The notes: generated by a model not told the origin, from the letters alone. A DNA stretch of 64,000 nucleotides from Candidatus Zixiibacteriota bacterium (GCA_030605835.1 JAUWHO010000001.1:29966-93965), one strand, 5' to 3'. Positions 617 through 28,302 are shown, counted from the stretch's first letter. Program-made: numbers and translations.

Positions 617-621
617 AGCAG

Positions 622-4986: not shown

Positions 4987-5100
4987 TGATACCTCCCCAG
5001 AATTAGGGTTATTGGTTATAAAGAACTGTTAGCTTTCCTTAGACTGTATTCGATCCATTAGATAATCTAAGCTGCCGAGAACATTTGTCAAGCAAAAAAG

Positions 5101-5240: not shown

Positions 5241-5331
5241 ACTCAATATCTTACACCACTGTGGCCACCTTCGCGCCCAGCTATTTCAGTCTGAACCAGA
5301 ACCGAAAAGTTCTGTCTTTAGTGAGGTCAAC

Positions 5332-5404
5332 CCCCCGCGGCCGGACTCGAACCAGCGACAGGGTGGTTAACAGCCACCTGCTCTACCAACTGAGCTACAT
5401 CCCC
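5332..5404 (-). tRNA. tRNA-Asn(GTT)-like gene. The D, anticodon and T arms are canonical, but the acceptor stem does not pair in my hand fold.
   Basis: On the minus strand: GGGGATG-TA-GCTC-AGTTGGTA-GAGC-A-GGTGG-CTGTTAA-CCACC-CTGTC-GCTGG-TTCGAGT-CCGGC-CGCGGGG-G. The 5' GGGGATG would need 3' CATCCCC, but CGCGGGG is observed. No CCA. Confidence 0.5.
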
Positions 5405-5509
5405 GAAACTGCTTTCAACGTCTCCGTTTACCAACTCCACCTGTCTTTGTCCTGCCCGCGCCGGTATTGGAAATGCTAGGGGCCTTTCACCACAATCTTT
5501 CAGCTCTCC

Positions 5510-6232: not shown

Positions 6233-6277
6233 GCAGCACCTCCTTCGAGAAGATTTTTGAGTTTACCCTTTCATTCC

Positions 6278-6978: not shown

Positions 6979-7117
6979 TTGGTACCTCCCCAGAATTGGG
7001 GTTATTGGTTATAAAGAACTGTTAGCTTTCCTTAGATGTATTCTATCTCCTTAAATAACTTACATTGCCGAGAGCATTTGTCAAGCAAAAAAGTTGATTT
7101 CCTTCATTAGCGGAACC

Positions 7118-9127: not shown

Positions 9128-9255
9128 TTGGTACCTCCCTTAAAATAGGTTTATTTGTCAAAAGGGGATGCTGGCTTTCCTTGGAATACTTCTCTTATAA
9201 TCCCTATAGTAACCTAAGGCTTCAGATGACCTTTGTCAAGCAGAATGATGACAAG

Positions 9256-10026: not shown

Positions 10027-10189
10027 CATTTTTTCACCCTCGCTGTCCAAAATTAGAAGCAAAAAATGCCGAACGTATAGTAATAAAATAAAACCTAATT
10101 AGCTTGACAAACTTTTTTATGGCTATTATCATTTCTGATTGTCAGAGTGATTTGACAATTTTTTTTAGTCCGCTACAGATCCGTAAGAA

Positions 10190-12883
10190 GTGGTGATTGA
10201 GGTGAACGAAGAGGTCTTACCAAAGCAATACGACCCCAAGAAGACCGAGGATCGGTGGTATCAGTATTGGGAGTCCCGGGGTCTTTTCAAGGCCGACCCC
10301 GAAAGCCCCAAGCCGCCGTACAGCATTGTCATTCCGCCGCCCAACGTTACCGACATCCTCCATCTGGGGCACGCCTTAAACAACAGCCTTCAGGATATTC
10401 TGGTTCGCTACAAGAGGATTCGGGGTTTCGAGACCGAGTGGCTACCGGGGATCGACCACGCCGGAATCGCTACTCAGGTGGTGGTCGAGAAGAAGTTGGC
10501 AGAAGAAGGGATGAGTCGTCAGAAGCTGGGACGGGAGGAGTTCTTAAAGAGGGTTTGGCAGTGGAAGGACAGGAACGCCGACATCATCATCGAGCAGCTC
10601 AAGAAGATCGGCTGTTCCTGCGACTGGGATAAAACCAGGTTCACCATGGACGAGGGGCTCTCCCGGGCAGTTCTGGAGGTCTTCGTTCACCTTTACAACA
10701 AAGGGCTGATCTACAAAGGGAACTACATCGTCAACTGGTGCCCGCGCTGTCAGACTTCCTTATCCGACGATGAACCCGAAAGGGATGAACGGGATGGCCG
10801 GCTCTGGTACATAAAATACAAATTGAAGGGGGAGGACGAGTATATCACCGTCGCCACCACCAGGCCGGAGACCATGCTGGGGGACACCGCCGTCGCCGTT
10901 CACCCCAAAGATAAACGTTACAAAAAATACATAGGCAAGACCGCCATCCTGCCGATACTCGACCGCGAGCTTGCCATCATCGGGGACGAATATGTCGATC
11001 CCCAGTTCGGCACCGGCGCCGTCAAGGTTACTCCGGCGCACGACCCCAATGACTTCGAAGTCGGCAATCGCCACAACTTAGAGAAAATCAATGTCTTAAA
11101 CCCCGATGGCAGCATCAACCAGAATGGCGGCAAGTTCAAAGGTCTGGATCGCTACGAGTGCAGAAAAAGACTGGTCGCGGAACTGAAGAAGAAGGGGCTT
11201 TTAGAGAAGGAGGAGAAATACCGCGTCCCGGTTTTAACCTGCTACCGTTGTCATACCGATATCGAGCCCTATCTGTCGGAACAATGGTTCGTCAAGATGA
11301 AACCGCTGGCGGAGCCGGCCATTAAGGCGGTCAAAGAGGGCACCATAAGATTTTATCCCGGGCACTGGAGCAAGGTCTACCTCCACTGGATGGAGAACAT
11401 CCACGATTGGTGCATCTCCCGGCAGTTGTGGTGGGGACATCGTATTCCGGTCTGGTATTGCGACGACTGTCCCGAGATAACGGTCTCCAAGACCACCCCG
11501 GAGAGTTGTGGCCACTGTGGGAGTAAAAATGTCCACCAAGAAGAGGATGTCCTGGACACCTGGTTCTCCTCCTGGCTGTGGCCCTTTTCCACCTTCGGCT
11601 GGCCGGAGAAGACCAAGGAGCTGGAGGTCTTCTATCCCACCAAGCCCCTCTTCACGGCCTCGGAAATCATCTTCCTCTGGGTCGGGAGAATGGTGATGGC
11701 CGGGTATGAATTCATGGGCAAGCCCCCCTTCACCGACGTTTACATCCACGGCACCGTCCGGGACATAAACGGGATTAAGATGAGCAAGTCCCTGGGGAAC
11801 GGGATCGACCCCCTGGAGATCGTTCGGGATTACGGTGCCGATGCCCTGAGGATGACATTAGTCTTGGTCACCCCGGAGGGACAAGACCCCTTCCTGGCCA
11901 AGAACTCCTTCGAGCTGGGGAGGAATTTCTGCAACAAGCTCTGGAATGCTGGTCGCTTCGTTCTTTCTAACCTCAAGGATTTCGAGGCCAAGGAAGGGGA
12001 GACCTTCCCTCCGGACAGAAAGAGCTTGGACACCGCCGACCGCTGGATTCTGTCGCGCTTCTACGGGGCGATGGAAACCGTCGAGAAGGCCATCGAAAGC
12101 TATCGGTTCAACCAGGCCGGGAAGACTCTCTACGATTTCCTCTGGAAGGATTTTTGCGACTGGTATCTGGAATTCATAAAAGAGCGCCTTTACGATGCCG
12201 AGCATCCCCGGGAGAAAAGGATACCACAGCTTTTGGCCTCCCACCTGCTGGAGAAGACCCTGGTGGCTCTGTCTCCATTCGTTCCTTACATCTCCGAGGA
12301 GATCTGGCAGAGGTTGTCCAAGAAGATTTACATCGACGGCTCCCCCTGGACCGTCAACTACGCCGGCTGGCCGCAGACAAGAAGAGAGTGCCTCGACCTT
12401 GCCTTAGAGTCAGAGATGTCGCAGCTTCAGGAGGTCATCTATTCAGTTCGCAGCATCCGGGCGGAGATGAACGTCAAGCCGGCAAAGAGGGCAGACGTCA
12501 TAATAAAAACCGACAATCCCGAGCTCCACAAGCTGCTGGAGAAAAACAGACATTATATAACGCAACTGGGGAAGGTCGACAACCTGGAGATCTCTCCGAG
12601 AGCTAAGAAACCCCAGCATGCCGCCTCCGCGGTCGTCAGGGGAGCGGAGATCTACGTTCCCCTGGAGGGCTTGATTGATCTGGAGATTGAGAAATCACGT
12701 CTGGAAAAGGAGATGGAAAGGCTCAACGAGCAAATCGACAAGACCGCCAGGAAACTGAACAACAAAGACTTCACCAACAAAGCGCCTCCGGAGGTTGTCG
12801 AGAGAGAGAGGGCCAAACAACAGGAATATCAACAGATGCTCGACAAAATCGTCAAGAATATCGAAAGCTTGGTGGGATGGTAG
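10190..12883 (+). CDS. valS: Valine--tRNA ligase.
   Basis: HLGH (PPPNVTDILHLGHAL) and KMSKS (IKMSKSLGN) class I motifs, and a coiled-coil C-terminus. The exact GTG start is ambiguous within 10190-10211. Confidence 0.92.
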   Translation: MVIEVNEEVLPKQYDPKKTEDRWYQYWESRGLFKADPESPKPPYSIVIPPPNVTDILHLGHALNNSLQDILVRYKRIRGFETEWLPGIDHAGIATQVVVEKKLAEEGMSRQKLGREEFLKRVWQWKDRNADIIIEQLKKIGCSCDWDKTRFTMDEGLSRAVLEVFVHLYNKGLIYKGNYIVNWCPRCQTSLSDDEPERDERDGRLWYIKYKLKGEDEYITVATTRPETMLGDTAVAVHPKDKRYKKYIGKTAILPILDRELAIIGDEYVDPQFGTGAVKVTPAHDPNDFEVGNRHNLEKINVLNPDGSINQNGGKFKGLDRYECRKRLVAELKKKGLLEKEEKYRVPVLTCYRCHTDIEPYLSEQWFVKMKPLAEPAIKAVKEGTIRFYPGHWSKVYLHWMENIHDWCISRQLWWGHRIPVWYCDDCPEITVSKTTPESCGHCGSKNVHQEEDVLDTWFSSWLWPFSTFGWPEKTKELEVFYPTKPLFTASEIIFLWVGRMVMAGYEFMGKPPFTDVYIHGTVRDINGIKMSKSLGNGIDPLEIVRDYGADALRMTLVLVTPEGQDPFLAKNSFELGRNFCNKLWNAGRFVLSNLKDFEAKEGETFPPDRKSLDTADRWILSRFYGAMETVEKAIESYRFNQAGKTLYDFLWKDFCDWYLEFIKERLYDAEHPREKRIPQLLASHLLEKTLVALSPFVPYISEEIWQRLSKKIYIDGSPWTVNYAGWPQTRRECLDLALESEMSQLQEVIYSVRSIRAEMNVKPAKRADVIIKTDNPELHKLLEKNRHYITQLGKVDNLEISPRAKKPQHAASAVVRGAEIYVPLEGLIDLEIEKSRLEKEMERLNEQIDKTARKLNNKDFTNKAPPEVVERERAKQQEYQQMLDKIVKNIESLVGW

Positions 12884-12938
12884 AGAGTGAAGTCCCATCG
12901 CGGGGGTTAGAGAGAGAACCTAAGACCGGGAGGTGAAT

Positions 12939-14306
12939 ATGAGAAAGATTGCACTTCTTATGATAGTTTTCTTTGGGGCCTGCGCTTTCGCCGGGGATTT
13001 CAGCCTCACCGTCTATAATCAGGACATAAGCCTGGTGAAACAGAAAGAGAGCTTCAACTTCTCGAAGGGGACCCAGGAGATAAGTCTGCAAGGGGTTCCC
13101 TCCCGGATCGACCCCACCTCGGTTCATTTCAAGCCCTTGAAGGATGCCAACAAAATCGCGCTGTTGGAGCAAAACTACCGTTACGACTTGGTGAGCCCCT
13201 CTAAGATATTCGAGAGATACTTAGACCATAAGATCCAGCTCACCACCAAGGGGGACAAATTCTACGAGGGCAGCCTCCTGAGTTTCAACGAGGGGCAGAT
13301 CGTGATTAAGAATGGCGGTCTCTCCATCGTGCGCGTCGATGAGATCAGGGACTATCAGTTCCCCGACCTCCCCGAGGGGCTTTTGACCAAGCCGACGCTG
13401 GTGTGGTTGGTAGAGAGCGGCATCCGCGGTCGCCGCGATTGCGAGGTCAGCTATCTCACCAAGGGGTTGAGCTGGCATGCCGAGTATGTTGCCGTAGTCG
13501 ACCAAGAGGATAAGAACTTGGAGCTGTCTGGATGGGTGTCATTGGATAACAGAAGCGGGGCCACCTACGAAAACGCCAAGCTCAAACTGATCGCCGGAGA
13601 TGTTCACCTGGTGGAGGCTTATCCGACCCGCCTCGTTGATATGGAAGGACTGGGTCGACCCTCCAAGGCGGTGCCCCAATTTGAAGAGCGTGCCTTTTTC
13701 GAATACCACCTCTATACTATGATCAGGCCGACAACTCTCAAAGATAAAGAGACCAAGCAACTCTCCCTGTTTCCGGCAGCCTCCACTCCGGTCAAAAAGA
13801 TTTACACCTTCGAGAGCAGAGGCTACTACCCTCGAGCTCGAGGCGGACGAGATCAGAAGGTGGCCGTAACTCTGGAGTTCACCAACGCTCAGAAACAGGG
13901 ACTGGGGATCCCCCTGCCGGAGGGAAAAATCAGAGTCTATAAGGCCGACAGAGATGGGTCTTTAGAGTTTATTGGGGAGGATAAGATCGATCACACCCCC
14001 AAAGATGAAAAGGTGCGCGTTTTCGTCGGGAACGCCTTCGATATCGTCGGGGAGAGAACTCAGAAGGAGCGCAAGGAGCTTGCCCCCAAGCTGGTCGATG
14101 AGACCTACGAGATCAAGTTGAGAAATCATAAGGAGGAGAAGGTAGAGGTGGTAGTGGTGGAACACTTCCACCGCTCCCGGGACTGGGAGATAATTGAATC
14201 CAACTACACCTATACCAAAAATGATGCCTGGACGGTTGAATTCGTCATTCCGGTGAAGGCCGACGGCGAATCCATTTTGGAATACAAGGTCCGTTACCGC
14301 TGGTAG
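12939..14306 (+). CDS. DUF4140/DUF4139-like (mucoidy inhibitor MuiA-like) secreted protein.
   Basis: Signal peptide, and an N-terminal TVY...V...LP..IDP.SV pattern typical of DUF4140/DUF4139 proteins. Motif-level recall only. Confidence 0.55.
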   Translation: MRKIALLMIVFFGACAFAGDFSLTVYNQDISLVKQKESFNFSKGTQEISLQGVPSRIDPTSVHFKPLKDANKIALLEQNYRYDLVSPSKIFERYLDHKIQLTTKGDKFYEGSLLSFNEGQIVIKNGGLSIVRVDEIRDYQFPDLPEGLLTKPTLVWLVESGIRGRRDCEVSYLTKGLSWHAEYVAVVDQEDKNLELSGWVSLDNRSGATYENAKLKLIAGDVHLVEAYPTRLVDMEGLGRPSKAVPQFEERAFFEYHLYTMIRPTTLKDKETKQLSLFPAASTPVKKIYTFESRGYYPRARGGRDQKVAVTLEFTNAQKQGLGIPLPEGKIRVYKADRDGSLEFIGEDKIDHTPKDEKVRVFVGNAFDIVGERTQKERKELAPKLVDETYEIKLRNHKEEKVEVVVVEHFHRSRDWEIIESNYTYTKNDAWTVEFVIPVKADGESILEYKVRYRW

Positions 14307-14361
14307 GATTGATTGGTGGAGAGAAAAACTCGTTTCTATTGAATACTTTCTTGGAGGAGTG

Positions 14362-15387
14362 ATGAAGTATACCAAATATCTCCTGGGGGGTCTATTGATT
14401 ATCACCCTTATCTTTTCGGTGAGCTGCCAGAGTAAATACTTAACCGCGGCAAAGATCGCCCTGCAGCTTAGTCCTCCGGACCACGATGATGCTCTGGCAA
14501 ACCTCAAGCTCTGCGTCCAGGAGGACCCCAAGAATGCTAAGGCTTATAATCTGATGGGTCAGATTTACGCCGAGAAGAACATGTATCAGGAGATGCTGGA
14601 GAGCTTCAGGAAGGCGGAGAGCCTGGATCCTTCCCTGAAGAAGGAGAACGACAAGTGGCGAGAGAACAAGTGGGCCAGGGTCTTCAACAAGGGCCTCCAG
14701 GAGGTAAAAGCTGGCAACCTCACCTCCGCCAGAGAGCAATTCCGGACCGCCATCTTCATCGACTCCACCAAGTGGGAATCGTATGCCAATCTTGGCTTCA
14801 CCTATTCCCGAATGGACAGCTTGGATGGAGCTTACCTCAGCTACAAAAAGGCCTTCGAGCTCAAAGGAGATGACATAACTACTGCGCTGGACTACGCCAC
14901 GGTGTGCTATCAAAGCCAGAAATGGGACGAGGCCGAAATAGGCTACGCCCAGCTCCTCGAACTGGATCCAGGACACAACGAGGGTTTGATCCGCCTGCCG
15001 GAGGTTTACAAGAACCAGGGTCGGTTGGAGGACTCCAAGAACGCTTATGAGCGAACCTTGAAGCTCATCCCCGGCAATCAAGATGTCTGGTTCAACTTAG
15101 GGGTGCTTTGTTTTCATGAGCTGAAGGATTACGACTGCGCCTCGGAGTCCTTCAACAAGGTGGTAGAGCTGGTACCGGACGATCAAGACGCCAACATGAA
15201 TCTGGCGCTTTCCTATCTGATGCAAGAGAAATACGACCTCGCCGCCCCGGTCCTGGAGAAGTTGGTGCAGATGGACGAGAAGAATTGTGACGCCTGGGAG
15301 ATGCTCTCCGGAAGTTACACTCAACTGAAAGAACAGGATAAGGCCCGGGAGGCTTTCAACCGCTACCGGGATTGTAAGGGGGAGTGA
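14362..15387 (+). CDS. Tetratricopeptide-repeat lipoprotein.
   Basis: Lipobox-like FSVSC, repeated 34-aa TPR-like units (AKAYNLMGQIYAEKNMYQEMLESFRKAESLDP and others), and a GGAGG Shine-Dalgarno site. Confidence 0.7.
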   Translation: MKYTKYLLGGLLIITLIFSVSCQSKYLTAAKIALQLSPPDHDDALANLKLCVQEDPKNAKAYNLMGQIYAEKNMYQEMLESFRKAESLDPSLKKENDKWRENKWARVFNKGLQEVKAGNLTSAREQFRTAIFIDSTKWESYANLGFTYSRMDSLDGAYLSYKKAFELKGDDITTALDYATVCYQSQKWDEAEIGYAQLLELDPGHNEGLIRLPEVYKNQGRLEDSKNAYERTLKLIPGNQDVWFNLGVLCFHELKDYDCASESFNKVVELVPDDQDANMNLALSYLMQEKYDLAAPVLEKLVQMDEKNCDAWEMLSGSYTQLKEQDKAREAFNRYRDCKGE

Positions 15388-18230: not shown

Positions 18231-20381
18231 ATGAATATGAGACTGTTTTTGAGCTTTGTCATTGTTTCCCTTTTTCTCCTTCCTGCTTCTTCTTTGGCGG
18301 TGGAGGTTTCCGGTCCGGTATGGGGTCGCTGGACGGTTGAGAACTCCCCTTACGATGTCGTTGGAGAGGTGAGAGTACCTCCCGAATCGACCCTCATAAT
18401 CGACCCCGGAGTGGTGGTCAACTTCAAGGGGCACTACAAATTTATCGTGGATAGTGCCGCGGTGCTGTTAGCAGTCGGGAGCGAGACCGATTCTATCTAC
18501 TTCACTCCAGAGGACACCACCGTTGGATGGCACGGCATCCGCTTCATCCATGCCGACGGAGCCTCACACCTCTCTCATTGTCAAATCAGATACGGAAAAG
18601 CCACGGGGACCTATCCCGACTACCACGGTGGCGGTGTCTTCTGTTACTATTCTGACCTCAAAATTAACAACTGTAGCATCGTCAGAAATCATGCGATGAG
18701 AAACGGTTTTGGCGGGGGAATCTACTGCTACCACTCGAGCTGCGAGATAACTGAAAGCGACATCAGCTTCAACAAGGCCACCCCGATCGGAGGCGGCATT
18801 TACGCCGTCTATTCAAATCTCACCATCAGATCCAGCAGTCTCGTCAGAAACATGGCGTGGGGGGCCGGCGGCGGCATCTACTGCGGCTCCTCCGATTTGG
18901 TCTCAAGCTCCAACAGCTTCAGCGACAATTGGTCCTTCTTCGGAGGCGGGATCTATGCCTTCAGCTCTCAGGTCAACATAACCAGCGACAGCTTTGAAGC
19001 TAACTCCATTAGCCACCTGGGGGGCGGGATTTTCGTTGGCGACTGCGATGGAGTAATAAATGATAACGTCATCGCCGGTAACGATGCTGAGGATGGTGGC
19101 GGCATCTTTTGCGGGTATGGTTCGACGGTTATCATAGCCAATAACCTCATCAGCAATAACACTACCTACCACGCCGACGATGATGGCGGCGGCATCTTCT
19201 GCCACAATTCAAGCCCCGAGATACTTCATAACCTCATTATCGGGAACTTCGCCCAGCGTTACGGTGGTGGTATCTATCTCTGGGGCTCAAGTCCCTTGAT
19301 AGAAGGCAACACCATAAGCATGAACACCGCCCAATACGGTGGGGGCATATGTTGTCACGATAGCTCCTTTGTAACGGTCACAAACAACATACTCTGGGAA
19401 GATTCTGCCGAGGTGGGAATGGAACTCTGCTTGTTATATGATGCGGAAGCAGTCCCCCCTGTGCTTACAGTTAGTTATAGTGACGTTGAAGGGGGCGAAG
19501 GAGATGTTTACGTCGCCCCTGAAGCCGAACTTGTCTGGGGATACGGCAACCTCGATCTAGACCCACTCTTTATCGATTCCCACGGAGACGATTTTCACCT
19601 GCTGCCCACGTCTCCGTGTATCGACGTGGGAGATCCATATATGGAGGACTATGACCACTCCCGTTCGGACATGGGAGCTTTGCCATATTTCCACAAGATC
19701 GCCTTGCGCCTGCGCCCGGATGACCCTTTCCCTCTCAGCTTCCCCCGGGGTTATGACGCCTACGGGATGAGAACCATCGCCAATAACACTGCCTCTCCCA
19801 AGCCGGTCAAGCTTTCGAGCGTCATTACCAACTCCGCCGGTGACACCCTGAGAAATCTGTATTCGTGGGAGGGAAATCTGCCCAGACAACACTTGAGGGA
19901 GGATTACGGCTATCTCCACGTTCCAAGCTATGTGCCGCCCGGTTTCTACAACTACGTGATGGCGGCGGAGAATGCTTCAACCGGTGAGATCTGGCACACC
20001 TCGGTGACGCCGTTTGAGATTTCTGAAGGTGGAGCGATTGCAACCTCTGGTGAAGGTTGGTTCTCACAATTCGGGGAAAAGTTCTCTCGGGGCGAGGATG
20101 TGAGCTTTATCCCTTCAGAGACGAGCCTCAATACTCGTTGTTATCCCAACCCCTTCAATACCTCCACCACTATCAGCTACCAGCTTCAAACTGCAGGCCA
20201 GGTCACTTTGGAAGTCTACAACCTTCTTGGACAGAGGGTGACCACATTAGTGAACGAAAAGCAGCAGGCTGGAGATAAATTTGTAATCTGGGATGCTTCC
20301 CAAGTTTCCTCCGGGCTTTACTTCTACAAGTTGACCGCCGGGGATTTCACGCAGACCAAGAGGATGATGCTGGTGAAGTGA
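18231..20381 (+). CDS. Secreted parallel beta-helix repeat protein with a T9SS type-A CTD.
   Basis: The N-terminus is homologous to the 3130-4986 gene (VWGRWTVENSPYDVVGEVRVP...HYKFIVD). It has GGGI rungs and ends YPNPFN...LYFYKLTAGDFTQTKRMMLVK. Confidence 0.8.
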   Translation: MNMRLFLSFVIVSLFLLPASSLAVEVSGPVWGRWTVENSPYDVVGEVRVPPESTLIIDPGVVVNFKGHYKFIVDSAAVLLAVGSETDSIYFTPEDTTVGWHGIRFIHADGASHLSHCQIRYGKATGTYPDYHGGGVFCYYSDLKINNCSIVRNHAMRNGFGGGIYCYHSSCEITESDISFNKATPIGGGIYAVYSNLTIRSSSLVRNMAWGAGGGIYCGSSDLVSSSNSFSDNWSFFGGGIYAFSSQVNITSDSFEANSISHLGGGIFVGDCDGVINDNVIAGNDAEDGGGIFCGYGSTVIIANNLISNNTTYHADDDGGGIFCHNSSPEILHNLIIGNFAQRYGGGIYLWGSSPLIEGNTISMNTAQYGGGICCHDSSFVTVTNNILWEDSAEVGMELCLLYDAEAVPPVLTVSYSDVEGGEGDVYVAPEAELVWGYGNLDLDPLFIDSHGDDFHLLPTSPCIDVGDPYMEDYDHSRSDMGALPYFHKIALRLRPDDPFPLSFPRGYDAYGMRTIANNTASPKPVKLSSVITNSAGDTLRNLYSWEGNLPRQHLREDYGYLHVPSYVPPGFYNYVMAAENASTGEIWHTSVTPFEISEGGAIATSGEGWFSQFGEKFSRGEDVSFIPSETSLNTRCYPNPFNTSTTISYQLQTAGQVTLEVYNLLGQRVTTLVNEKQQAGDKFVIWDASQVSSGLYFYKLTAGDFTQTKRMMLVK

Positions 20382-20666
20382 GGTCCCTGATCCTCTTTTG
20401 ACGGGGGCTGTGTAAAGCATTGTGTGGTTTTCTGCCCAGGGGTGGCTAGAGAAGAAATGTATATGCCGGCAGGGACAGACAGTCCTGGATAAGCTTGACA
20501 GGATCAAGCGCAAAACCATGAGGCTGAGGCGCGCTCAGAATCGCCCAACATGTTTTTCAGCCGTTGCGGGTTTTTGGGGCATTTAAGCTACGATTCAGAA
20601 ATAAACTTGCGAGTTTACCAAACTCTGAATTCACGCAACAGCCCCGAAATCGGCTGCAAAAAATCG

Positions 20667-21512
20667 TTATGTATTTTCAATTATGCCACTATTGACGCAT
20701 ATTTGTGTGAACAGTGCTCCAACATTAAATAGGACTGTATTTCCTGTATCAATTCCCAGTTTATTTACTTTTATCTTAACTTTAATTTCAGCTTTTTTCC
20801 GTGCATCAAAAATTGCAAATATACCTTGCGCACCCTTACTTCCCGTAATATTCACTCTTGCTGGATTGTTTTCAAATTCTTTTGAGCAGGTTTTAAGAAC
20901 ATAACTTTTTATATCCTGCTCATCTGTTAACTCTAAATATTCTTTAGTCACGAACTCATTACCATAAAATTCCATTTTTGTTAGGATAGAAAAGTCTTCT
21001 TCTCTGTCAAAGGAAATAACGTCAATGCTCATAAAGAATCTATTATCAAGGGTTCCTTGTTCTATCAGGTAATCTATATAATAATCTAAACCATCAGTTA
21101 TTCTGCCTGAGTTATCAATATTGTATTTCTTTTTAAGAACCGCCAGAAGTTTCTTTAGCCCAGTATCAAAGTTACCCCGAAAATCAGCGTAGAGTTTGTC
21201 TCTTAGTAGAAGCGGTATTTTGCAATCATCAATAATAACTGGAAGTATTGTTATTTTCTTATCTTCAATTTCTTTTAATAGCCCTGCATTAATTTCCCTC
21301 TTAACCCACTCGGATTTTATTGAGTTATTTGAAAATACAACACAAATGTAGCTTGCTCCTTCAAGACCATCCTGAATCTTATTGATAAATGAATCACCAA
21401 CACTGATTTGCCACTCATCTTTCCATACCTTGACATTATGAGAAATGAGAGACATAGCTAGTTTATCAACAAATTCGCTATCTTGATGGTTATAACTTAT
21501 AAATACTGACAT
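20667..21512 (-). CDS. TIR-domain protein with an uncharacterized C-terminal domain of about 145 aa (TIR-C).
   Basis: FISYNHQDSEFV (beta-A) and SEWVKREI (SxW...E catalytic-Glu signature). The C-terminal half matches nothing I recognise. AT-rich codon usage. Confidence 0.75.
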   Translation of the reverse strand: MSVFISYNHQDSEFVDKLAMSLISHNVKVWKDEWQISVGDSFINKIQDGLEGASYICVVFSNNSIKSEWVKREINAGLLKEIEDKKITILPVIIDDCKIPLLLRDKLYADFRGNFDTGLKKLLAVLKKKYNIDNSGRITDGLDYYIDYLIEQGTLDNRFFMSIDVISFDREEDFSILTKMEFYGNEFVTKEYLELTDEQDIKSYVLKTCSKEFENNPARVNITGSKGAQGIFAIFDARKKAEIKVKIKVNKLGIDTGNTVLFNVGALFTQICVNSGIIENT

Positions 21513-21565
21513 AGATTTTCACTATTATCTCATCACATAACGATAAGGATAACCCCCTGGTATGG

Positions 21566-21600
21566 AGCGCAGCGGAATACCAGTCGGGTTCATCTTTTTG
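21566..21600 (-). terminator. Hairpin between TIR-B and TIR-C. Possible intrinsic terminator or attenuator.
   Basis: Minus strand: CTGGTAT-tccgctgcgctcc-ATACCAG, then GGGGTTATCCTTATCGTTAT. A GC-rich hairpin in an otherwise AT-rich spacer. Confidence 0.3.
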
Positions 21601-21617
21601 TTATGCTAAATTAAGTC

Positions 21618-22001
21618 TCAGTCCCGAATAGCTTTTGCTATCTCCTTAGCTGCAGAAACTGGAGAGCTTTCACGCAAATATTGATATTTTACTAAGGATA
21701 AAGGTAGTCGCTCATGTCCAACTTCATCAATAACAACTGGAATAATCCTTTTTTTGTCAGCCACAGCAGCCCCTAACTCAAAATATATCCATGGACTTTG
21801 AAGGCTATTTGAACTTAACAAAACCACCAAAGTGCTACTCGCCCGAAGTGCCTCTTGAGTTTGTTGCCTAATATCTTCCCCTAAGGATATTTCATGATAA
21901 TCAAACCAAACTTCAATTCCTTCCTGCTCAAGGGTTTCAGCGAATGCTTGCACCCAACGTCTGTCTTTGAAGGAGTAGGATAAGAATATTTTATTCTTCA
22001 T
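21618..22001 (-). CDS. TIR-only protein (TIR-B).
   Basis: FLSYSFKDRRWV and SPWIYFEL (SxWxxxEL). 127 aa. Its start overlaps the upstream TIR-A stop. Confidence 0.75.
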   Translation of the reverse strand: MKNKIFLSYSFKDRRWVQAFAETLEQEGIEVWFDYHEISLGEDIRQQTQEALRASSTLVVLLSSNSLQSPWIYFELGAAVADKKRIIPVVIDEVGHERLPLSLVKYQYLRESSPVSAAKEIAKAIRD

Positions 22002-22435
22002 TTCTCTACCCCCATCTTAGAATCTTTGTTGACACGCTCTTCAAGCTGACCGAAATATTGGTCAATATCATTTAAACTAATGATGTCCCTTTTCTTTAGG
22101 AATACAGGTGCGTTGGGACGAGATTGAAATTCTGAAGGGGATAAACCGTGCAAAACCACAATTATTGGGATTCTCCTTATCCACGCTGCTCCTATTTCTG
22201 CCCATACGTATGGCCTCTCAAATGACCATGGTGTGAATAACACTAATAATTCATCTGCCTTATCCAAAAACTCTAGAATATCTTCCTCGAATTCAGCACC
22301 AATATCGACATCTGCCTCATCGAGAAATGGAGTAGCATTGTGAGATGTTATTTCTCTTGCTATCTGCCTTGCCACCCAAGTATCTTGCCCCGAATGGCTA
22401 ACAAACACCAATTTTTCATTAGTTTGGTCGGTCAT
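21998..22435 (-). CDS. TIR-only protein (TIR-A).
   Basis: FVSHSGQDTWVA and TPWSFERPYVWAEIG. 145 aa. First gene of the AT-rich island operon. Confidence 0.7.
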   Translation of the reverse strand: MTDQTNEKLVFVSHSGQDTWVARQIAREITSHNATPFLDEADVDIGAEFEEDILEFLDKADELLVLFTPWSFERPYVWAEIGAAWIRRIPIIVVLHGLSPSEFQSRPNAPVFLKKRDIISLNDIDQYFGQLEERVNKDSKMGVEK

Positions 22436-22463
22436 TCCATTAAGACCTTTTCTGTTTTATTGG

Positions 22464-22469
22464 CATAAC
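22464..22469 (-). promoter_or_regulatory. Candidate -10 box (TATAAT) for the TIR operon.
   Basis: Minus strand ...CACTGTATAATCATTG..., about 30 nt upstream of the TIR-A ATG. Confidence 0.3.
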
Positions 22470-22606
22470 AATGATTATACAGTGTGCATAAACCGGCAAA
22501 GATAGACTTTTTCCTTCCGTATAAACCTTCTGAGCATTTCATAGTTCATGGGCCTAAGTCCTTGAATATCCATGTTATATCTCCTCTCATCATCTCAACG
22601 GGGTTT

Positions 22607-22629
22607 GTCTTATACAGTCTGTATAAGAC
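22607..22629. repeat. Perfect 11-bp inverted repeat with a 1-nt spacer, at the island edge.
   Basis: GTCTTATACAG-t-CTGTATAAGAC, followed by a GC-rich tract (ccggggctgcgcacccccttgcggccgcgg) inside AT-rich DNA. Confidence 0.5.
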
Positions 22630-22864
22630 GGCTCAAAGCCCATCTCCGGGGCTGCGCACCCCCTTGCGGCCGCGGTTCAGATGCTTCGATTCACTACAGA
22701 CAACTGATGAAGAGCCCGAAGGCCTTCGATCCACTCTCCCAACACTTATGACGCCACCGCTCTCTTGCACGAATTTCTCCGGCTTTTCAATGTATTTCGC
22801 ATATAATATATCTCTGACAAAGAGTCAAGAAAAACTTATCTTTTTCTGCCATGCTACGCCAACC

Positions 22865-22999
22865 CTTGAGTGCGGTCCGGAAAATGCCTGTGGATATCTT
22901 AATGGGTGGGATGCTTCTGATGTCTCCTCTGGTCTTTACTTCTACAAATTGACCGCTGGTGACTTGTCTGAGACTAAAAGGATGATTCTATTGAAATAG
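22865..22999 (+). pseudogene. Orphan T9SS CTD 3' remnant with low-GC codons (...NACGYLNGWDASDVSSGLYFYKLTAGDLSETKRMILLK*).
   Basis: Only about 45 codons of CTD homology at the 3' end of an otherwise composite ORF. Third codon positions are AT-biased, unlike the native CTDs. Confidence 0.5.
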
Positions 23000-23259
23000 T
23001 GTCACCAGCTAGCCTCGCCGAAGACACCAGGGATTAGATTAGCGTAGGTCAAGTATCAGACCGAAGCTAACTTCCATCAAGCGGCAGGAATTTTCTTGAC
23101 AACAGGGGGCTTTTTTGTATCTTTGGAAATGAAAGGGCTTGATGACGCCGCCCCATTCTAACTGGTCAGAATGAACTCTACCGCGGGGCGATCATCTGTT
23201 TGACAGTCCGAAGCGTGTCTAAAACGTCCGAAGTCTTACCATTCCAAAAAGGAGGAGCT

Positions 23260-24957
23260 ATGAAGAGAAGCTATTTTCTTTCGATGCTTCTGATTGTCTT
23301 TCTTTTTACTTCTTCTCTATCCTGGGGCGAATTCAAGTATGCGGTGCTGGTAAATAACTCCACCTATCAGATCCCGGAGTGGGCCCTTGTTGCTGATACT
23401 CTGAAGTCGCGCTACGACGGTGAGATTTTCACCTGGGAAAGCTCGGTGTGGGACGTGCGCTCGGAATTGTCAGCTTACAAGCCAACCCACATCGCCTTCG
23501 TCTGCGAGCCCCTGACCGCCAGCGCCGGTTTCGTCCAGATAGTGTGGCCCTTTACCCGCTGCCTCGACGATGATCCCTACGGTGATGCCATCTGGGGGAT
23601 AATCACCGGTTACGACGCTGCAGACGCTCTTCGCCTGGCCAACTGTGAGCCTTTTGTGGTTAAGAACATGCTTGGAGGCACGATGAGCTGTGATGTGAAC
23701 TATTACCCCCAGGGAATAGCCACCAGCGAGGCAACTTACAATCGCATCCGCTTCAAGTATCTGGACGGCACCATCATCGACACCACCGATGAGAATCTCT
23801 GCCCCACCGACCGCACCGAGTTCCTTATGGACATGATAAACGCCGACACTATCGACATCTTTATGACCAGCGGACACGGCAACCACGACCGCTGGCAACT
23901 GCACTATCCCTCTCCCGACCTGGAGGGGTTTTTCATGTCCAGCGCTGGTCAACTCTACGGAGATCCTCGTATCGGTCCGAACATCAACGCCAATTCCGTC
24001 AATCCCAAAATCTACTTAGCCTTAGGCAACTGTTATGTCGGCAAACTTCAGAACCTGAATTCGATGGCTCCCGCCTGGATCCATACCGGCGGAGCCTCTC
24101 TCATGACCGGCTATGTGGAGTGGGAGGGCACCTATAGCCACCAGCACGGTGGCACCAAAGCTTTCTTCGCCCGCCAGGGGCTTTACACTTGGCCGGAGGC
24201 ATTCTTTTTAGCCAACCAGGCCCTTTACTTTGACCTCGACAACCACACTCCTGGCACTAACCCCCCAGATTTGAACTGGTCGGCGCTCTACGGAGACCCA
24301 GCTTTGGATGCCCGTCTGGACACCGTGTCTGGGGTTATTCCCGGCTCGATGTATGAGGAGCAGATTGAGATCGTGCCCGGAGACGACAAAGACACTGTCA
24401 CGGTGCGGATTGTCATGAACCGGGAGGACTCGCCGGGCTACAACGGGAAGTGGGGGAATCGCCATCCCATTATTCTTTTCCCCTTCCGGGCTGAAAATCC
24501 GGTCATCATCAAATACGACCCGGAATGTTATACCGCCGAGGTTACCGATGATTTCTTCTTGATGTGTATCTGGTGGCTGGGTGACGCTCCCCTTCCAGCG
24601 GGAGCGACCCGGGAGTTCGTCTTCACCTGCGACCACATGGTCACCTCCGTGGAGGAACCTGCCTCACCACCTCTGCCGAGCAAGATAGTCCTTTACCAGA
24701 ACCGTCCCAATCCCTTCAACGCCCAGACTCAGATCAGATATCAACTCTGCTCCCCGACCGCGGTCAACTTGGCAATCTACAACCTCCAGGGGGAACGGGT
24801 CTGCACTCTGTTCGAAGGGTATCAATATCCGGGAACATACAACCTCATCTGGGACGGTCGCAATCAGAGGGGAGGCGAGGTGGTCTCGGGAATCTACTTC
24901 TACCGCTTGACCTCCGGCGACATCTCCGAGAGCCGACCGCTCTTATTGTTGAAATAA
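23260..24957 (+). CDS. T9SS-CTD cargo protein with a C25/clan-CD-like cysteine peptidase core (gingipain-like).
   Basis: Signal peptide after an AGGAGG site. A His-Gly motif FMTSGHGNHD and a downstream Ala/Gly-Cys motif LALGNCYVG resemble the clan CD His/Cys dyad. C-terminal RPNPFN...IYFYRLTSGDISESRPLLLLK. Confidence 0.6.
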   Translation: MKRSYFLSMLLIVFLFTSSLSWGEFKYAVLVNNSTYQIPEWALVADTLKSRYDGEIFTWESSVWDVRSELSAYKPTHIAFVCEPLTASAGFVQIVWPFTRCLDDDPYGDAIWGIITGYDAADALRLANCEPFVVKNMLGGTMSCDVNYYPQGIATSEATYNRIRFKYLDGTIIDTTDENLCPTDRTEFLMDMINADTIDIFMTSGHGNHDRWQLHYPSPDLEGFFMSSAGQLYGDPRIGPNINANSVNPKIYLALGNCYVGKLQNLNSMAPAWIHTGGASLMTGYVEWEGTYSHQHGGTKAFFARQGLYTWPEAFFLANQALYFDLDNHTPGTNPPDLNWSALYGDPALDARLDTVSGVIPGSMYEEQIEIVPGDDKDTVTVRIVMNREDSPGYNGKWGNRHPIILFPFRAENPVIIKYDPECYTAEVTDDFFLMCIWWLGDAPLPAGATREFVFTCDHMVTSVEEPASPPLPSKIVLYQNRPNPFNAQTQIRYQLCSPTAVNLAIYNLQGERVCTLFEGYQYPGTYNLIWDGRNQRGGEVVSGIYFYRLTSGDISESRPLLLLK

Positions 24958-25044
24958 GTTTTTTGTACGGCCCGGAGAGATTGAGTTAGTTCTCGGTGAG
25001 AGAACCGAGAGCTGAACCTTGCATCAGATTTGAAGGGTGTTGTA

Positions 25045-27132
25045 ATGAAATCCATACTCAAAGCATTCTTTAGGTTCGGAGCTCTGCTTTCAATCTGCTG
25101 TTTTCTATCTCCGATTACGCTCCTGGCACAGTGGCAACTCGTAGATTCCACAAGCTTCCAGGTGAGATTAGCTGCAGATAGCAACTGCTTTATTACATTC
25201 AATCCCGGAGATGATTCTTTAGAGGTCACCCTCCCCGAAAGAGGGCTTTCGGAGACGGCGCTTTTGGCTTTGGAGAAAGCTCCCGATTGGTTGAAGCCAG
25301 CTCTGGGGGACAATCTCGCCAGGCTGGCAACCGGGCTGCAGGACACCTACGCGGCGATAATACTGAATTCCACCGACCCGTTTGTTGATGAACTCTGTTT
25401 CGAGATTGCCCAGCTAGCCCCGCGGACCCTGCGGGATATGGAGAGATGGGAGGCTTTGGAGGTCTTGACGGAAAATGTGGCCTCCCTTTACAGCATTGAT
25501 AACTTCCTGGAGTATGCTGACATCCTTGACTACGGCAACTCCTCCCAGGGGGGTGACTATTATTCGACCGTCAGTTACCGAGTGGAAGAGGAGGGGGATA
25601 CTCTGGAGTTCGAGCTCCCCAAAGAGATCTATTACTGGTATCTGGTTCATCCCAAAATCCACAAGGAGCTCCCGGCATACATCGACCCCAATACCGGAAA
25701 CCCCTCCTGGCCTCCTTACGGGTTTTTCTGGAGAGACTATTTGATGAATTACGCCGACGGAGGCTATCCCTTACTGAAAGATATGCTTGAGGGAGTGGAG
25801 ACTCTCTGGAACAACATCCCCGACAATATTGAAAACGGCGCCGTTGGAGTTTTAACCGCCTGGGTCGATTCGGTGATGGACTTTATATCCTACCCTCATC
25901 ACGACCAGCCGGTGAGGATATACCACCTCCATATAGGGACTTGCAGCGTTCACTCTTACCTGACCTCGGCGGCAGCGAGGGCGGCCTTGATTCCCGCCAC
26001 CGTGACGGTGATGTACAGCAACGACCATAAGGTCAACGAGTTCTGGGAACGGCGCTGGATCAGCTGGGAACCGGTGGGGATACACATTGACAATCCCCGC
26101 TGCTACGACCCCGGTTGGGGCTGGGATATTGCCGCCGTCTTCAACTGGAAAGGGAACGGCTTCATCTGGGATGTCACCGAGAGATACACCGAGGTCTGCA
26201 CCTTGAAAGTCACCATCACTGACGCTGGTGGCAGCCCCGTCGATGGTGCCCGAATAAAACTCCATAGTGCACCCTGTGTGGCCTGGGGAGCCACCGCGGG
26301 ATGGACAATCGAGACCGGGGAAAAACAGTTCCTCTTGGGGGACAGTCGCGATTTCACCGGTCGAGTGGACAGCGAACTCGGAGGCTACCCTCCGAGCGGG
26401 ATGGAACAGATAATCACCGGTAGCCAGCCGGGAGCGGTTTATACCTGGGAGGTCACCCTCCCGGGGGATATGCCCCAGCTTGAGATTCTGCCCGACACCC
26501 TTCCCGAAAACCCCAGGGATGAATTCAAAATCGAGCTGGAGTTTGAGCTCCCTTCAGAGATCCTTTACGGTGACAACCTCGACGACAACGACAGCTTCTC
26601 GGAGTTCGTCTCGCCGGGGCAAATAGACCTCTTCATCTGCGATCAGGCCAACTTCGATGACTATATCGCCGGTAGTGAATTCAAAGCCTTTGAAATCAAT
26701 CGTGGGGTCCCGCAGGGTACGCTCGAGTTTGTCTTTCCAACCGATGATGTCTGGTATCTGGTTTTCTCCAATGAGAAATCAACAGTGCTCACGCAGCAGT
26801 TAGAGATGGTCGCCTACCTCTACCAGAAATCGACCGGAGTTGCCGAGAGAGAGGAATCCGAAATACCCCAAAGCTTCAAGCTGGTGGGGAACTATCCTAA
26901 TCCCTTCAATAGCCAGACTACCATCAGCTATCAGTTGCCGGTGAACAGCGAGGTGAAATTGGAGCTTTACAACTTACTGGGACAGAAGATAACCACATTG
27001 GTTGACGAAAGACAGGAAGCCGGATACAGGTCAGTCATCTGGGAAGCTACCGCAGTTTCTTCTGGTATCTATTTCTGCAAGTTGACCACGGAAGAATTCG
27101 TTCAGACAAAGAGGATGTTGCTGATTCAATAA
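25045..27132 (+). CDS. T9SS-CTD cargo protein with a transglutaminase-like cysteine protease core.
   Basis: GTCSVHSYLTSAAARAALIPATVTV...DHKVNEFWE matches the Cys...His...Asp transglutaminase-like pattern (G.C......A..R.LGIPAR...H.W.E). C-terminal YPNPFN...IYFCKLTTEEFVQTKRMLLIQ. Confidence 0.65.
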   Translation: MKSILKAFFRFGALLSICCFLSPITLLAQWQLVDSTSFQVRLAADSNCFITFNPGDDSLEVTLPERGLSETALLALEKAPDWLKPALGDNLARLATGLQDTYAAIILNSTDPFVDELCFEIAQLAPRTLRDMERWEALEVLTENVASLYSIDNFLEYADILDYGNSSQGGDYYSTVSYRVEEEGDTLEFELPKEIYYWYLVHPKIHKELPAYIDPNTGNPSWPPYGFFWRDYLMNYADGGYPLLKDMLEGVETLWNNIPDNIENGAVGVLTAWVDSVMDFISYPHHDQPVRIYHLHIGTCSVHSYLTSAAARAALIPATVTVMYSNDHKVNEFWERRWISWEPVGIHIDNPRCYDPGWGWDIAAVFNWKGNGFIWDVTERYTEVCTLKVTITDAGGSPVDGARIKLHSAPCVAWGATAGWTIETGEKQFLLGDSRDFTGRVDSELGGYPPSGMEQIITGSQPGAVYTWEVTLPGDMPQLEILPDTLPENPRDEFKIELEFELPSEILYGDNLDDNDSFSEFVSPGQIDLFICDQANFDDYIAGSEFKAFEINRGVPQGTLEFVFPTDDVWYLVFSNEKSTVLTQQLEMVAYLYQKSTGVAEREESEIPQSFKLVGNYPNPFNSQTTISYQLPVNSEVKLELYNLLGQKITTLVDERQEAGYRSVIWEATAVSSGIYFCKLTTEEFVQTKRMLLIQ

Positions 27133-27162: not shown

Positions 27163-28302
27163 GTGAGAAATGAAGTAAGCCCAAAAGCGATCTGCGTTTT
27201 TGCTCTGGCAGTTCTCTACCTGATACTTATTCGAAGTGCGCCCGCCTATTGTGAGGTACCAGTCGATTTCTTCGACCAGATTGCGGAGGAGAAAATCTGG
27301 GAGGGATTTCCGGTTATCTGGATTGCCTCCTACAGCGATCCCATGACTGGTTACGACGTCAACTGCGACAAAAACACCCGATTCAAAGGGATGGGTTTAC
27401 CCCTGCGAAAAATCGAGAAACAGGATTCGGTCTCCTATCTCTATTTCCTCAGCGGTGCTTTTCTCCTCCAGGACTTGCAGGGAGACTGGAATTACCTTTA
27501 TCGCCTGTGGGCATTTCTGAACCTCTCCGAAGATGGGAGGATACTCAAGATTGCCGCCGAAGAGGGTCCTTTCCGTTATTTGGGTTATAATCCCTCCCCC
27601 TACGATTCAGGGTATCAGTTCATGATGGTGGAGGGGAACCACTATCCTCCCACTGGTCATTCCGGTTCTATTTGGATAGATGGTCACTATCAAGAGATCC
27701 CCACTCCGGAGGTGGTCTATGAGATCTCGGCATATCATTTCGAGGGGGAAGACACCGTCAGTTTCTCTGGCGTGGCCTTAGAACCTGTTCAGATGGGGGG
27801 AATCGATTATCATCTGACCGGAGGCATAATTGAACAGGCCTCTTCCAAGATTAGGCCTCACCGGATCTTCGGCACCCTGGAATACGACGGCTCTTATCAT
27901 TTGTATTTAGAGTCGGATTACATCGATTACTGGGGGAGATATATTGGACAATACTATGGTGAGGGAGACTACTGGGACGTCCTTGTCGTGGAGGAAATTA
28001 GTCCACAGTGTCTCCGAAGAGGGGAGCTTGAGGGACAAGTCCAGCCGATGTCAGGCAACGTGTGTCCTAATCCCTTCAACGTTTCCACAACCATCAGCTA
28101 TCGGCTGCCGGTGAACAGCGAGGTAAAACTGGAAGTTTACAACCTTCTCGGGCAGAAAGTGATAACGTTGGTTGAAGAAAAACAACAGGCCGGATACAAG
28201 TCAGTAATCTGGGAAACCTCGAACATATCCTCTGGTATCTATTTCTACAAGCTGACCGCTGGGGATCTTAACGAAACCAAGAGGATGACGTTATTGAAAT
28301 AG
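27163..28302 (+). CDS. T9SS-CTD cargo protein of unknown function.
   Basis: N-terminal hydrophobic signal. C-terminal CPNPFN...IYFYKLTAGDLNETKRMTLLK. Confidence 0.7.
   Translation: MRNEVSPKAICVFALAVLYLILIRSAPAYCEVPVDFFDQIAEEKIWEGFPVIWIASYSDPMTGYDVNCDKNTRFKGMGLPLRKIEKQDSVSYLYFLSGAFLLQDLQGDWNYLYRLWAFLNLSEDGRILKIAAEEGPFRYLGYNPSPYDSGYQFMMVEGNHYPPTGHSGSIWIDGHYQEIPTPEVVYEISAYHFEGEDTVSFSGVALEPVQMGGIDYHLTGGIIEQASSKIRPHRIFGTLEYDGSYHLYLESDYIDYWGRYIGQYYGEGDYWDVLVVEEISPQCLRRGELEGQVQPMSGNVCPNPFNVSTTISYRLPVNSEVKLEVYNLLGQKVITLVEEKQQAGYKSVIWETSNISSGIYFYKLTAGDLNETKRMTLLK

Follow-up and report, generated by a model that had tools for sequence, protein, structure and literature searches.

Two independent TIR-domain modules with integron-cassette-like junctions in an AT-rich island of a Candidatus Zixiibacteriota bacterium

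Results

Three TIR genes in an AT-rich island

The 64,000-nucleotide (nt) stretch of DNA analyzed here (the window) comes from a Candidatus Zixiibacteriota bacterium (GCA_030605835.1 JAUWHO010000001.1:29966-93965) and contains, between positions 20382 and 22906, an AT-rich island with three TIR-domain genes on the minus strand, which we call TIR1, TIR2 and TIR3. An earlier description of the island, made by a model without database searches (the sequence-only reading), had delimited the three open reading frames (ORFs), and all of its coordinates are confirmed, as are the beta-A motifs FVSHSGQD in TIR1, FLSYSFKD in TIR2 and FISYNHQD in TIR3. The profile searches that it proposed place all three proteins above the gathering score of 28 bits of the Pfam family TIR_2 (PF13676), and a test of superfamily membership assigned them the flavodoxin-like TIR fold. 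The genes and domains are as follows.

21998–22435, minus strand: TIR1, 145 amino acids (aa), a divergent yet extremely conserved TIR with F11 and E80 (YVWAEIGAAW); TIR_2 score 54.3 bits
21618–22001, minus strand: TIR2, 127 aa, a minimal TIR with F6 and E75 (SPWIYFELGAA); TIR_2 score 92.8 bits
20667–21512, minus strand: TIR3, 281 aa, an AbTIR-like TIR followed by a C-terminal domain (C-domain); TIR_2 score 108.2 bits
21135–21512, minus strand: TIR domain of TIR3, residues 1–126, with F4, S67, W69 and E73
20670–21131, minus strand: C-domain of TIR3, residues 128–281, about 150 aa, predicted structure beta4-alpha-beta4-alpha

The stop codon of TIR1 and the start codon of TIR2 share 4 nt (ATGA), and a spacer of 105 nt separates TIR2 from TIR3. 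The G+C content is 0.409 in TIR1, 0.396 in TIR2, 0.324 in TIR3 and 0.396 over the whole island, against 0.537 and 0.526 in the two 10-kb flanks. The flanks are thus above half G+C, as had been estimated by eye, and the accompanying estimate of about one-third G+C for the island is literally true of TIR3 only, since TIR1, TIR2 and the island as a whole lie near 0.40. The 12 windows of 600 nt with the lowest G+C content in the 64 kb all fall inside the island, which is the sole deep G+C trough of the stretch. The island is foreign DNA.

The island is two modules

Comparison with other contigs shows that the island consists of two independent modules, the TIR1–TIR2 pair and TIR3. Contig L173 carries only the pair module, matching window positions 22470–21536 at 97% identity, and the ends of this contig are unrelated to the window. 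Contig L174 carries only the TIR3 module (window 21541–20650 at 94%), and so do contigs L001 and L088 (window 21537–20665 at 93%), where it lies in a wholly different neighborhood. The homology breakpoint between the modules falls exactly at 21536/21537–21541. The modules also differ in composition, with a G+C content of 0.40 for the pair and 0.32 for TIR3.

Surveys of the two families give the same picture. For the pair, one genome per species was scanned, which yielded 173 carriers, and 80 loci were retrieved; for TIR3, 377 metagenomic relatives were found and again 80 loci were retrieved. The pair is kept in all 80 of its loci and the TIR3 C-domain occurs in none of them. The triad that the sequence-only reading suggested looking for in related genomes does not recur, the modules being apart in all 160 family loci, and its view of the island as a single three-gene cassette has to be given up.

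TIR modules do co-localize in varying combinations, because a third module adjoins homologs of the pair or of TIR3 in different contigs (L167, 948–2170; L171, 205–1427; L090, 500–1509; L105, 1–988; also L157, L159 and L161). This module encodes a ThsB_TIR protein of 183 aa, with a full-length match to the PADLOC model PDC-M50B (E = 6e-9), and a helical protein of 160–227 aa without a family match; in L169 and L170 only a 3' remnant of the helical gene is left.

Such co-localization, the common strand and close spacing of TIR1, TIR2 and TIR3 and the lack of a strong intrinsic terminator between TIR2 and TIR3 could be taken to mean that the three genes work as one co-opted system in this host, co-transcribed from the leader of TIR1. 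We regard this as very unlikely. The modules occur apart in L173, L174, L001 and every one of the family loci, they differ in G+C content and are separated by a 72-nt hairpin element, and a functional triad is supported by neither covariation nor synteny.

The TIR1–TIR2 pair

The 80 pair loci span Acidobacteriota, Chloroflexota, several proteobacterial classes, Planctomycetota, Latescibacterota, Thermodesulfobacteriota, Clostridia and archaea (Methanosarcinales, Methanothrix). The TIR2 homolog lies 3' of TIR1 on the same strand in every locus, and the gap between the two genes is −3 to 88 nt in 79 of them. The sole interruption is found in a proteobacterial metagenome-assembled genome (MAG), where an insertion of about 3.1 kb parts TIR1 from TIR2 (L057, 10342–13521). 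Pairwise identities of the two genes correlate across loci (r = 0.84), with means of 63% for TIR1 and 40.5% for TIR2, making TIR1 the slowly and TIR2 the fast-evolving partner. The pairing is obligatory and the two genes co-evolve. The constraint on TIR1 is also evident within its family, which comprises more than 1300 clusters at 90% identity: each of the top 120 shares at least 70% identity with the query, and the mean column identity in a cross-phylum alignment of 25 sequences is 76%.

Alignments locate the active-site residues. In TIR1, E80 is invariant in 81 of 81 sequences and aligns with the catalytic position of 7uxr and SpbK ("NEMGATW"), both of which are matched by the TIR1 family profile. 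E75 of TIR2 is kept in 80 of 81 sequences and aligns with "KDWTNYEL" of AbTIR, and E73 of TIR3 is kept in 44 of 44 and aligns with "DWTNYEL" of the same protein. The earlier proposal that each gene positions its catalytic glutamate in an SxW...E pattern is thus borne out for TIR2 and TIR3. For TIR1 it had pointed to "TPWSFE", the glutamate of which (E73) is variable (E in 49 sequences, D in 20, K in 4 and T in 4); the conserved residue is E80. The beta-A phenylalanine opposite the glutamate is conserved in all three proteins (F11, F6 and F4). This Phe/Glu pair corresponds to the residues mutated in Sau-ThsB2 (PMC12578639).

No third gene is conserved with the pair, the best non-TIR neighbor cluster being present in 7 of the 80 loci, and generic Ser/Thr kinases and ABC ATPases make up the commonest such clusters. 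The 125 immediate neighbors are mostly housekeeping genes (ilvC, psd, lpxC, nadA, ispH, histidine kinases), and PADLOC matches among the neighbors are sporadic and generic. Compared with its flanks, the pair has a higher A+T content in 76 of 77 loci, the mean difference being 6.9 points. A phage origin was considered and rejected, as no viral contig encodes a relative of TIR1; matches in PHROG are to generic TIR families of unknown function only, and there are none for the TIR3 C-domain. Among reference genomes, the closest DNA relatives of the pair in the window are on two archaeal MAG contigs (L009 and L007; about 72% nt identity over both ORFs), which is consistent with transfer between domains or with contamination of the MAG bins.

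Two small genes with a 4-nt overlap, invariant synteny, mobility and a patchy distribution are traits of toxin–antitoxin systems, and the main rival explanation for the pair is an addiction module of this kind. One TIR would be a toxin that cleaves nicotinamide adenine dinucleotide (NAD), its paralog would neutralize it in an inactive heterodimer, the module would chiefly serve to keep the cassette array or element stable, and phage defense would be a by-product at most. The AT-richness of the pair and its place among housekeeping genes with no defense-island signal fit this explanation, as do the asymmetric conservation of TIR1 and TIR2 and a ParE toxin near the pair in L167. Among the systems found in integron cassettes, toxin–antitoxin systems are moreover the commonest, and there they stabilize the arrays (10.1101/2024.07.02.601686). 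However, both partners keep the catalytic Glu and Phe at more than 98%, which is unexpected in a pure antitoxin, the pair contains no DNA-binding or autoregulatory domain, and we found no TIR–TIR toxin–antitoxin family in the literature. On this evidence we judge the addiction module unlikely, while giving it more weight than any other rival discussed here.

TIR3 and its C-terminal domain

Modeled alone, residues 128–281 of TIR3 give a pLDDT (predicted local distance difference test) of 93.7 and a pTM (predicted template modeling score) of 0.87. The model is a pseudo-repeat in which an antiparallel sheet platform carries two helices; this C-domain is confidently predicted, has no known structural relative and appears uncharacterized. 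It is found in just 55 clusters of 1.84 billion representative proteins and almost always occupies residues ~128–275 of proteins of about 280 aa; the shorter members that match Pfam are N-terminally truncated TIRs. In one protein of 318 aa (P0300) the C-domain is fused to DUF4062 instead of TIR, so that the head is swapped while the tail remains the same. Since it is almost confined to TIR fusions, with the single exception of this DUF4062 fusion, the C-domain is probably a module dedicated to NADase heads.

Full-length TIR3 homologs of about 280 aa occur in Dehalobacter, Leptonema, Salegentibacter, Pedobacter and many metagenomes. None of their neighbors is conserved: the maximum is 8 of the 80 TIR3 loci, and the genes concerned are tyrosine recombinases. 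Phage integrases, AbiJ, AbiV, type II methylases and several PDC candidates are also found, each family in a single locus, and one locus has a CBASS cyclase with a SAVED-HNH effector beside the TIR3 homolog. TIR3 is a stand-alone family, separate from the pair.

A Pycsar partner was also considered. The cassette after the 91%-identical TIR3 homolog of L001 encodes a 259-aa PycC-like protein (PADLOC, E = 1.2e-9), but this gene occurs only on that contig and has left no remnant in the window, and the candidate was rejected. In L174, the 94%-identical TIR3 copy (99–944) is split into ORFs of 190 and 62 aa, either by a frameshift that has made it a pseudogene or by an assembly error at 2x coverage.

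Linked effectors

PADLOC models for ThsA, SIR2, SLOG, Macro and cyclase proteins have no match among the other 56 ORFs of the window, and a local hidden Markov model (HMM) of tyrosine recombinases has none in its six-frame translation. The sequence-only reading is upheld in its statement that the island has neither a ThsA-type effector nor a cyclase, integrase or transposase linked to it. Its tentative label "Thoeris-like" is not, because the defining effector of Thoeris types I–XI (ThsA SIR2/SLOG, Macro, caspase-like, DUF2270 or another) is missing here and in the 160 related loci, and because the type III Thoeris family ThcB4, the best NCBIfam match of TIR1, returns 42.4, 34.2 and 25.7 bits for the three proteins against a cutoff of 220. 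PADLOC ThsB models give partial matches only. The best PADLOC match of TIR2 and TIR3, PDC-S66, was rejected as well, since only model positions 150–240 of 282, the TIR part, align, and they do so with the N-termini of TIR2 and TIR3.

The TIRs might still be ThsB-type signal generators in a Thoeris system acting in trans, in which a messenger of the cyclic ADP-ribose type, produced upon infection, would activate an unlinked effector, ThsA-like or new. With 22.1, 34.6 and 36.1 bits, all three proteins exceed the cutoff of the Pfam model ThsB_TIR (21.2 bits), and the nearest relatives of TIR2 and TIR3 in the PDB are AbTIR-class cyclases. Two-ThsB sensor/cyclase pairs are known (PMC12578639), type III Thoeris uses several TIRs (10.64898/2025.12.03.692087), and a ThsB-like TIR with a small helical protein adjoins the present modules in some contigs. 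On the other hand, an effector is linked to the TIR genes neither in the window nor in any of the 80 pair loci or 80 TIR3 loci, gene-sized moves across phyla and domains would be hard to sustain if an effector in trans were needed, the TIR_2 scores are far above the ThsB_TIR scores, and ThcB4 reaches 42 of the 220 bits of its cutoff. We consider this explanation decidedly unlikely.

Module junctions

The integron core site has the consensus GTTRRRY and the inverse core RYYYAAC. In an attC site, which is 57–141 nt long, RYYYAAC and GTTRRRY are joined by an imperfect hairpin. One core-like site and two attC-like elements lie at the ends of the modules.

22463–22469, minus strand: core-like site GTTATGC, 5' boundary of the pair module, where the 97% homology with L173 starts; the DNA upstream is unrelated
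21535–21606, minus strand: attC-like element after TIR2, 72 nt, recognized by its hairpin and the homology breakpoints
20543–20672, minus strand: attC-like element after TIR3, 130 nt, a long imperfect hairpin recognized by its motifs, with a weak fold

The starts and stops of homology with other contigs coincide with GTTATG (22469–22464 and 21541–21536) and CATAAC (20671–20666), which are reverse complements of each other. The GTTATG at 21541→21536 is the exact junction of the pair and TIR3, with the homology of L173 ending at 21536 and that of L001, L088 and L174 beginning at 21537–21541. At the other end of the TIR3 module, homology with L001 and L174 stops 2–17 nt past the TIR3 stop codon.

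The element after TIR2 has the termini GCATAAC (21606→21600) and GTTATGT (21541→21535), which close an end-to-end imperfect hairpin with an inner stem CTGGTAT/ATACCAG (21583–21577 / 21563–21557). Its DNA fold has a z score of −2.36 on the minus strand, where 5 of 200 shuffled sequences are as stable, and of −3.14 on the plus strand, where 1 of 200 is. In the element after TIR3, ACATAAC (20672→20666) overlaps the TAA stop codon and the far end is GTTGGGC (20549→20543), a perfect GTTRRRY.

In the contig with the 91%-identical TIR3 (L001, Ga0209749_1002049, 1–14838), small ORFs of unrelated functions form an array on one strand. The array contains at least six copies of a repeat of about 80 nt ending in ...CTAATAAtTGTT (...TGTT), at 487–563, 3046–3122, 6594–6671, 7579–7656, 10300–10329 and 12092–12157, and the TIR3 homolog fills one 985-nt unit. 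Judged by this organization, the contig looks like a sedentary integron or an array of cassettes of the CALIN type (an attC-site cluster with no integron integrase). An ORF of 929 aa with 13 tandem 126-nt repeats is also present on it (3205–5016). Textbook attC hairpins follow the TIR3 homologs in L096 (GCCTAAC...GTTAGGC, −23.5 kcal/mol), L121 and L174.

Flanking genes and the TIR1 leader

The features on either side of the modules are the following.

20289–20381, plus strand: 3' end of a type IX secretion system (T9SS) cargo gene, encoding the C-terminal sorting domain (CTD); the gene, 18231–20381, is intact (Por_Secre_tail, 44.2 bits)
20289–20377, plus strand: left copy of the 89-nt direct repeat D1 that brackets the island, 79% nt identical to 22907–22995
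20382–20542, no strand assigned: non-coding spacer of about 50% G+C between the cargo gene and the end of the TIR3 cassette; no ORF
22470–22906, no strand assigned: non-coding leader of TIR1, not attC-like
22907–22999, plus strand: orphan T9SS CTD remnant, last 30 aa and stop codon (blastx, tblastn)

The setting is, as previously described, an array of T9SS cargo genes with an orphan CTD. Genes 18231–20381, 25030–27132 and 27163–28302 match Por_Secre_tail with 44, 38 and 40 bits (cutoff 27), and gene 23200–24957 encodes a weaker T9SS CTD. The orphan CTD (22907–22996) comprises the final 30 of about 78 CTD residues and is 80% identical to residues 687–716 of the upstream cargo protein in blastx and tblastn, which find nothing farther upstream. 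Only this CTD tail, with 79% nt identity to the 3' end of the cargo gene upstream, is left of a further cargo gene, whose body the island has thus replaced. The spacer at 20382–20542 has no similarity to cargo proteins or to any retrieved locus, and the G+C content of 20382–20666 is 0.498. No tRNA gene and no Rfam family were found in the region. A second shortened T9SS CTD lies at 5128–5280 on the minus strand, with 51 of about 78 residues and no lowering of the local G+C content; it is possibly another disrupted cargo gene.

Insertion into a disrupted gene, together with the split TIR3 copy in L174, could indicate that the TIR genes are decaying or neutral passenger DNA without current function. 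This is the least credible of the explanations and can be given hardly any weight, since the three ORFs are intact, keep every family-invariant residue and are 93–97% nt identical to intact copies in other samples.

The leader of TIR1 contains a putative promoter, TGTATAAT (22481→22474), which lies on the coding strand 39 nt ahead of the ATG and resembles an extended −10 motif. A consensus scan for sigma-70 promoters and terminators gave matches at or below shuffle expectation and did not call TGTATAAT. Two related 23-nt sequences (D3/I9) lie 135 nt apart at 22475–22497 and 22610–22632 and include the near-palindromes TTATACAGTGTGCATAA and TTATACAGTCTGTATAA (22475–22491 and 22610–22626), the proximal one overlapping TGTATAAT. 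The near-palindromes and TGTATAAT may represent a promoter with its operator, or else something like an attI site.

Discussion

On balance we favor the view that two independently mobile TIR modules without effectors, which cleave NAD and are borne on cassettes, make up the island and have settled in a T9SS cargo gene. Module A (22469–21536) would be the two-gene operon TIR1–TIR2 and Module B (21541–20543) TIR3 alone, both having arrived as integron-type gene cassettes that replaced the body of the cargo gene. The arrangement as a two-cassette CALIN is probable for the lineage of this window, and it is not general to the two families. It is suggested by the homology breaks at core-like motifs that flank attC-like hairpins and by the TIR3 homolog in a repeat-punctuated array. 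The sequence-only reading had noted neither an integrase nor a transposase, but a mobility signature is not wanting, as the module boundaries resemble the junctions of integron cassettes. Integron cassettes hold streamlined one- and two-gene defenses and many toxin–antitoxin systems, and CALINs are common (10.1101/2024.07.02.601686); cassettes also pass between Archaea and Bacteria (PMC9668308).

Several observations weigh against this view. The GTTATG and CATAAC cores each deviate by one mismatch from GTTRRRY and RYYYAAC. IntI was not found in the window with the tyrosine-recombinase HMM in six frames, and for this reason the island would be a CALIN and not a complete integron. The DNA fold of the element after TIR3 is weak (−19.7 kcal/mol, z −1.4 to −1.6), and the segment 22460–22590, a candidate for a third attC, was rejected as unstructured (fold z +1.47). 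As a universal feature attC was likewise rejected: among 79 reference-genome loci, attC-like termini follow TIR2 in 5, compared with 1–2 in the controls, which is not an enrichment, and in the TIR3 loci they are found in 6 of 74 against 6 of 74 controls and do not discriminate. In another lineage of the pair, L167 and L169 share a block of 1258 nt whose ends are ordinary recombination breakpoints and not core sites, the left end lying inside a neighboring gene; mobility of the transposon type was rejected, as the block ends show neither terminal inverted repeats nor target duplications and no recombinase, tRNA gene or Rfam family was found in the window. The same TIR3 ORF (93–94% nt identity) is followed by three unrelated attC-like tails, of 130 nt in the window, about 62 nt in L174 and about 122 nt in L001, the switch coinciding exactly with the CATAAC across the stop codon (20666–20672). 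Three tails on one ORF would not be expected if every cassette kept its own attC when moving. No PADLOC or NCBIfam system model is matched over its full length by the pair or by TIR3, and the pair shows no enrichment in defense islands over its 80 loci. Immune genes do not typically behave in this way, and a selfish addiction module would fit the finding just as well.

Horizontal mobility of the modules as such is shown; its mediation by IntI, NADase activity, a division of labor within the pair and a role in defense are what we infer. A self-contained NAD-cleaving module, one of the options in the sequence-only reading, is a reasonable interpretation, and the modules are most likely compact NAD-cleaving defense or addiction cassettes rather than Thoeris systems. 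TIR1 and TIR2 would form a heteromeric TIR enzyme in which the highly constrained TIR1 may be the core for catalysis or assembly. TIR2, which evolves fast, may serve in trigger recognition or regulation, by analogy with S. aureus ThsB1/ThsB2. Once triggered, the pair would cleave NAD+ directly and bring about abortive infection or growth arrest with no dedicated downstream effector. In TIR3, the C-domain may be a sensor or auto-inhibitor that would hold the AbTIR-like head inactive until a trigger binds, by comparison with single-gene defenses that join an NADase head to an auxiliary domain (Swarozyc, Evangelion, SpbK).

A broader proposal, which we put forward tentatively and think somewhat doubtful, is that TIR1–TIR2 is an autonomous two-TIR system of a fast-changing sensor or regulator and a very highly conserved catalytic TIR, either a minimal immune module or the first TIR-based toxin–antitoxin system, that has spread across domains partly as cassettes, and that the TIR3 fold gates both TIR and DUF4062 heads. 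If active, the pair, with 272 aa in total, would be about the smallest known TIR system with two components. It would also be a clean model for switching in TIR–TIR heteromers, a question that concerns the TIR receptors that work in pairs in plants and the TIR adaptors of animals. Occurring on two different NADase heads, the TIR3 C-domain is a new sensor candidate. The cassette-like junctions lend further weight to the idea that integron arrays store streamlined defense genes, here outside Proteobacteria; they also suggest a route for cross-domain spread and would explain an island that lacks an integrase.

Comparison with known systems

Staphylococcal type I Thoeris resembles the pair in having two adjacent TIR genes, ThsB1 and ThsB2, with a Phe/Glu active-site pair (PMC12578639). 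There, the sensor ThsB1 recruits the catalytic ThsB2 on the phage capsid (PMC12578639). That system differs in needing ThsA and in the large extra sensor domain of ThsB1, whereas the pair described here consists of bare TIRs of 127–145 aa. Type III Thoeris also has several TIR genes in a row, but its effector is a SLOG protein, no SLOG gene is found here, and the TIR genes here belong to two unrelated modules. In consequence of the missing effector and the low ThcB4 scores, we do not count the modules as members of Thoeris.

Short single-protein TIR systems (TIR-V, -VI and -IX) defend E. coli (PMC11350192). Together with B. subtilis SpbK (PDB 9phb), they are the effector-less counterparts of the present modules, giving abortive-type defense through their own NADase sites, and "NEMGATW" of SpbK matches "AEIGAAW" of TIR1 in the profile alignment. 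Orthology is not detectable, however, E-values being marginal, and these systems have neither an obligatory TIR–TIR pair nor the TIR3 C-domain. Of the proteins with solved structures, the AbTIR/TIR_2 NADases (PDB 7uwg, 8g83 and 7uxr) come closest in sequence to TIR2 and TIR3 (E ~1e-11) and share with them the "W...E" catalytic motif and the BB-loop region; AbTIR differs in its N-terminal coiled coil and is a lone gene with no partner TIR and no beta-platform domain.

For TIR3, the nearest parallel in organization is offered by Swarozyc and Evangelion, in which a TIR-like NADase head of the DUF4062 type is combined with an auxiliary domain required for activity (10.64898/2026.05.01.722283; 10.64898/2026.06.25.731849). 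Like TIR3, these are single genes that join an NADase head to an auxiliary or sensor domain, and they are mobile and diversified. The head of TIR3, in contrast, matches TIR_2 and not DUF4062 (PF13271), and where KpSwz has a helical stalk and AUX region the C-domain of TIR3 is a beta-sheet platform.

The modules share with integron cassettes and CALINs their unit size of about 0.93–1.0 kb, core-like boundaries, motifs resembling inverse cores at stop codons, hairpins and the lack of a local integrase, but in reference genomes no attC is seen in most members of the families. In type II toxin–antitoxin systems the antitoxin is expected to have a DNA-binding or neutralizing domain that differs in fold from the toxin, whereas both proteins of the pair are TIR_2 members with a catalytic Glu. 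We found no description of a stand-alone two-TIR operon in the literature. The largest systematic survey of TIR proteins excluded stand-alone TIRs and relied on defense-island context (10.64898/2025.12.03.692087), and the pair would escape surveys of this design because it has no effector and mostly housekeeping neighbors. TIR-based conflict systems as such are already known; the TIR1–TIR2 pair and the C-domain of TIR3 appear uncharacterized.

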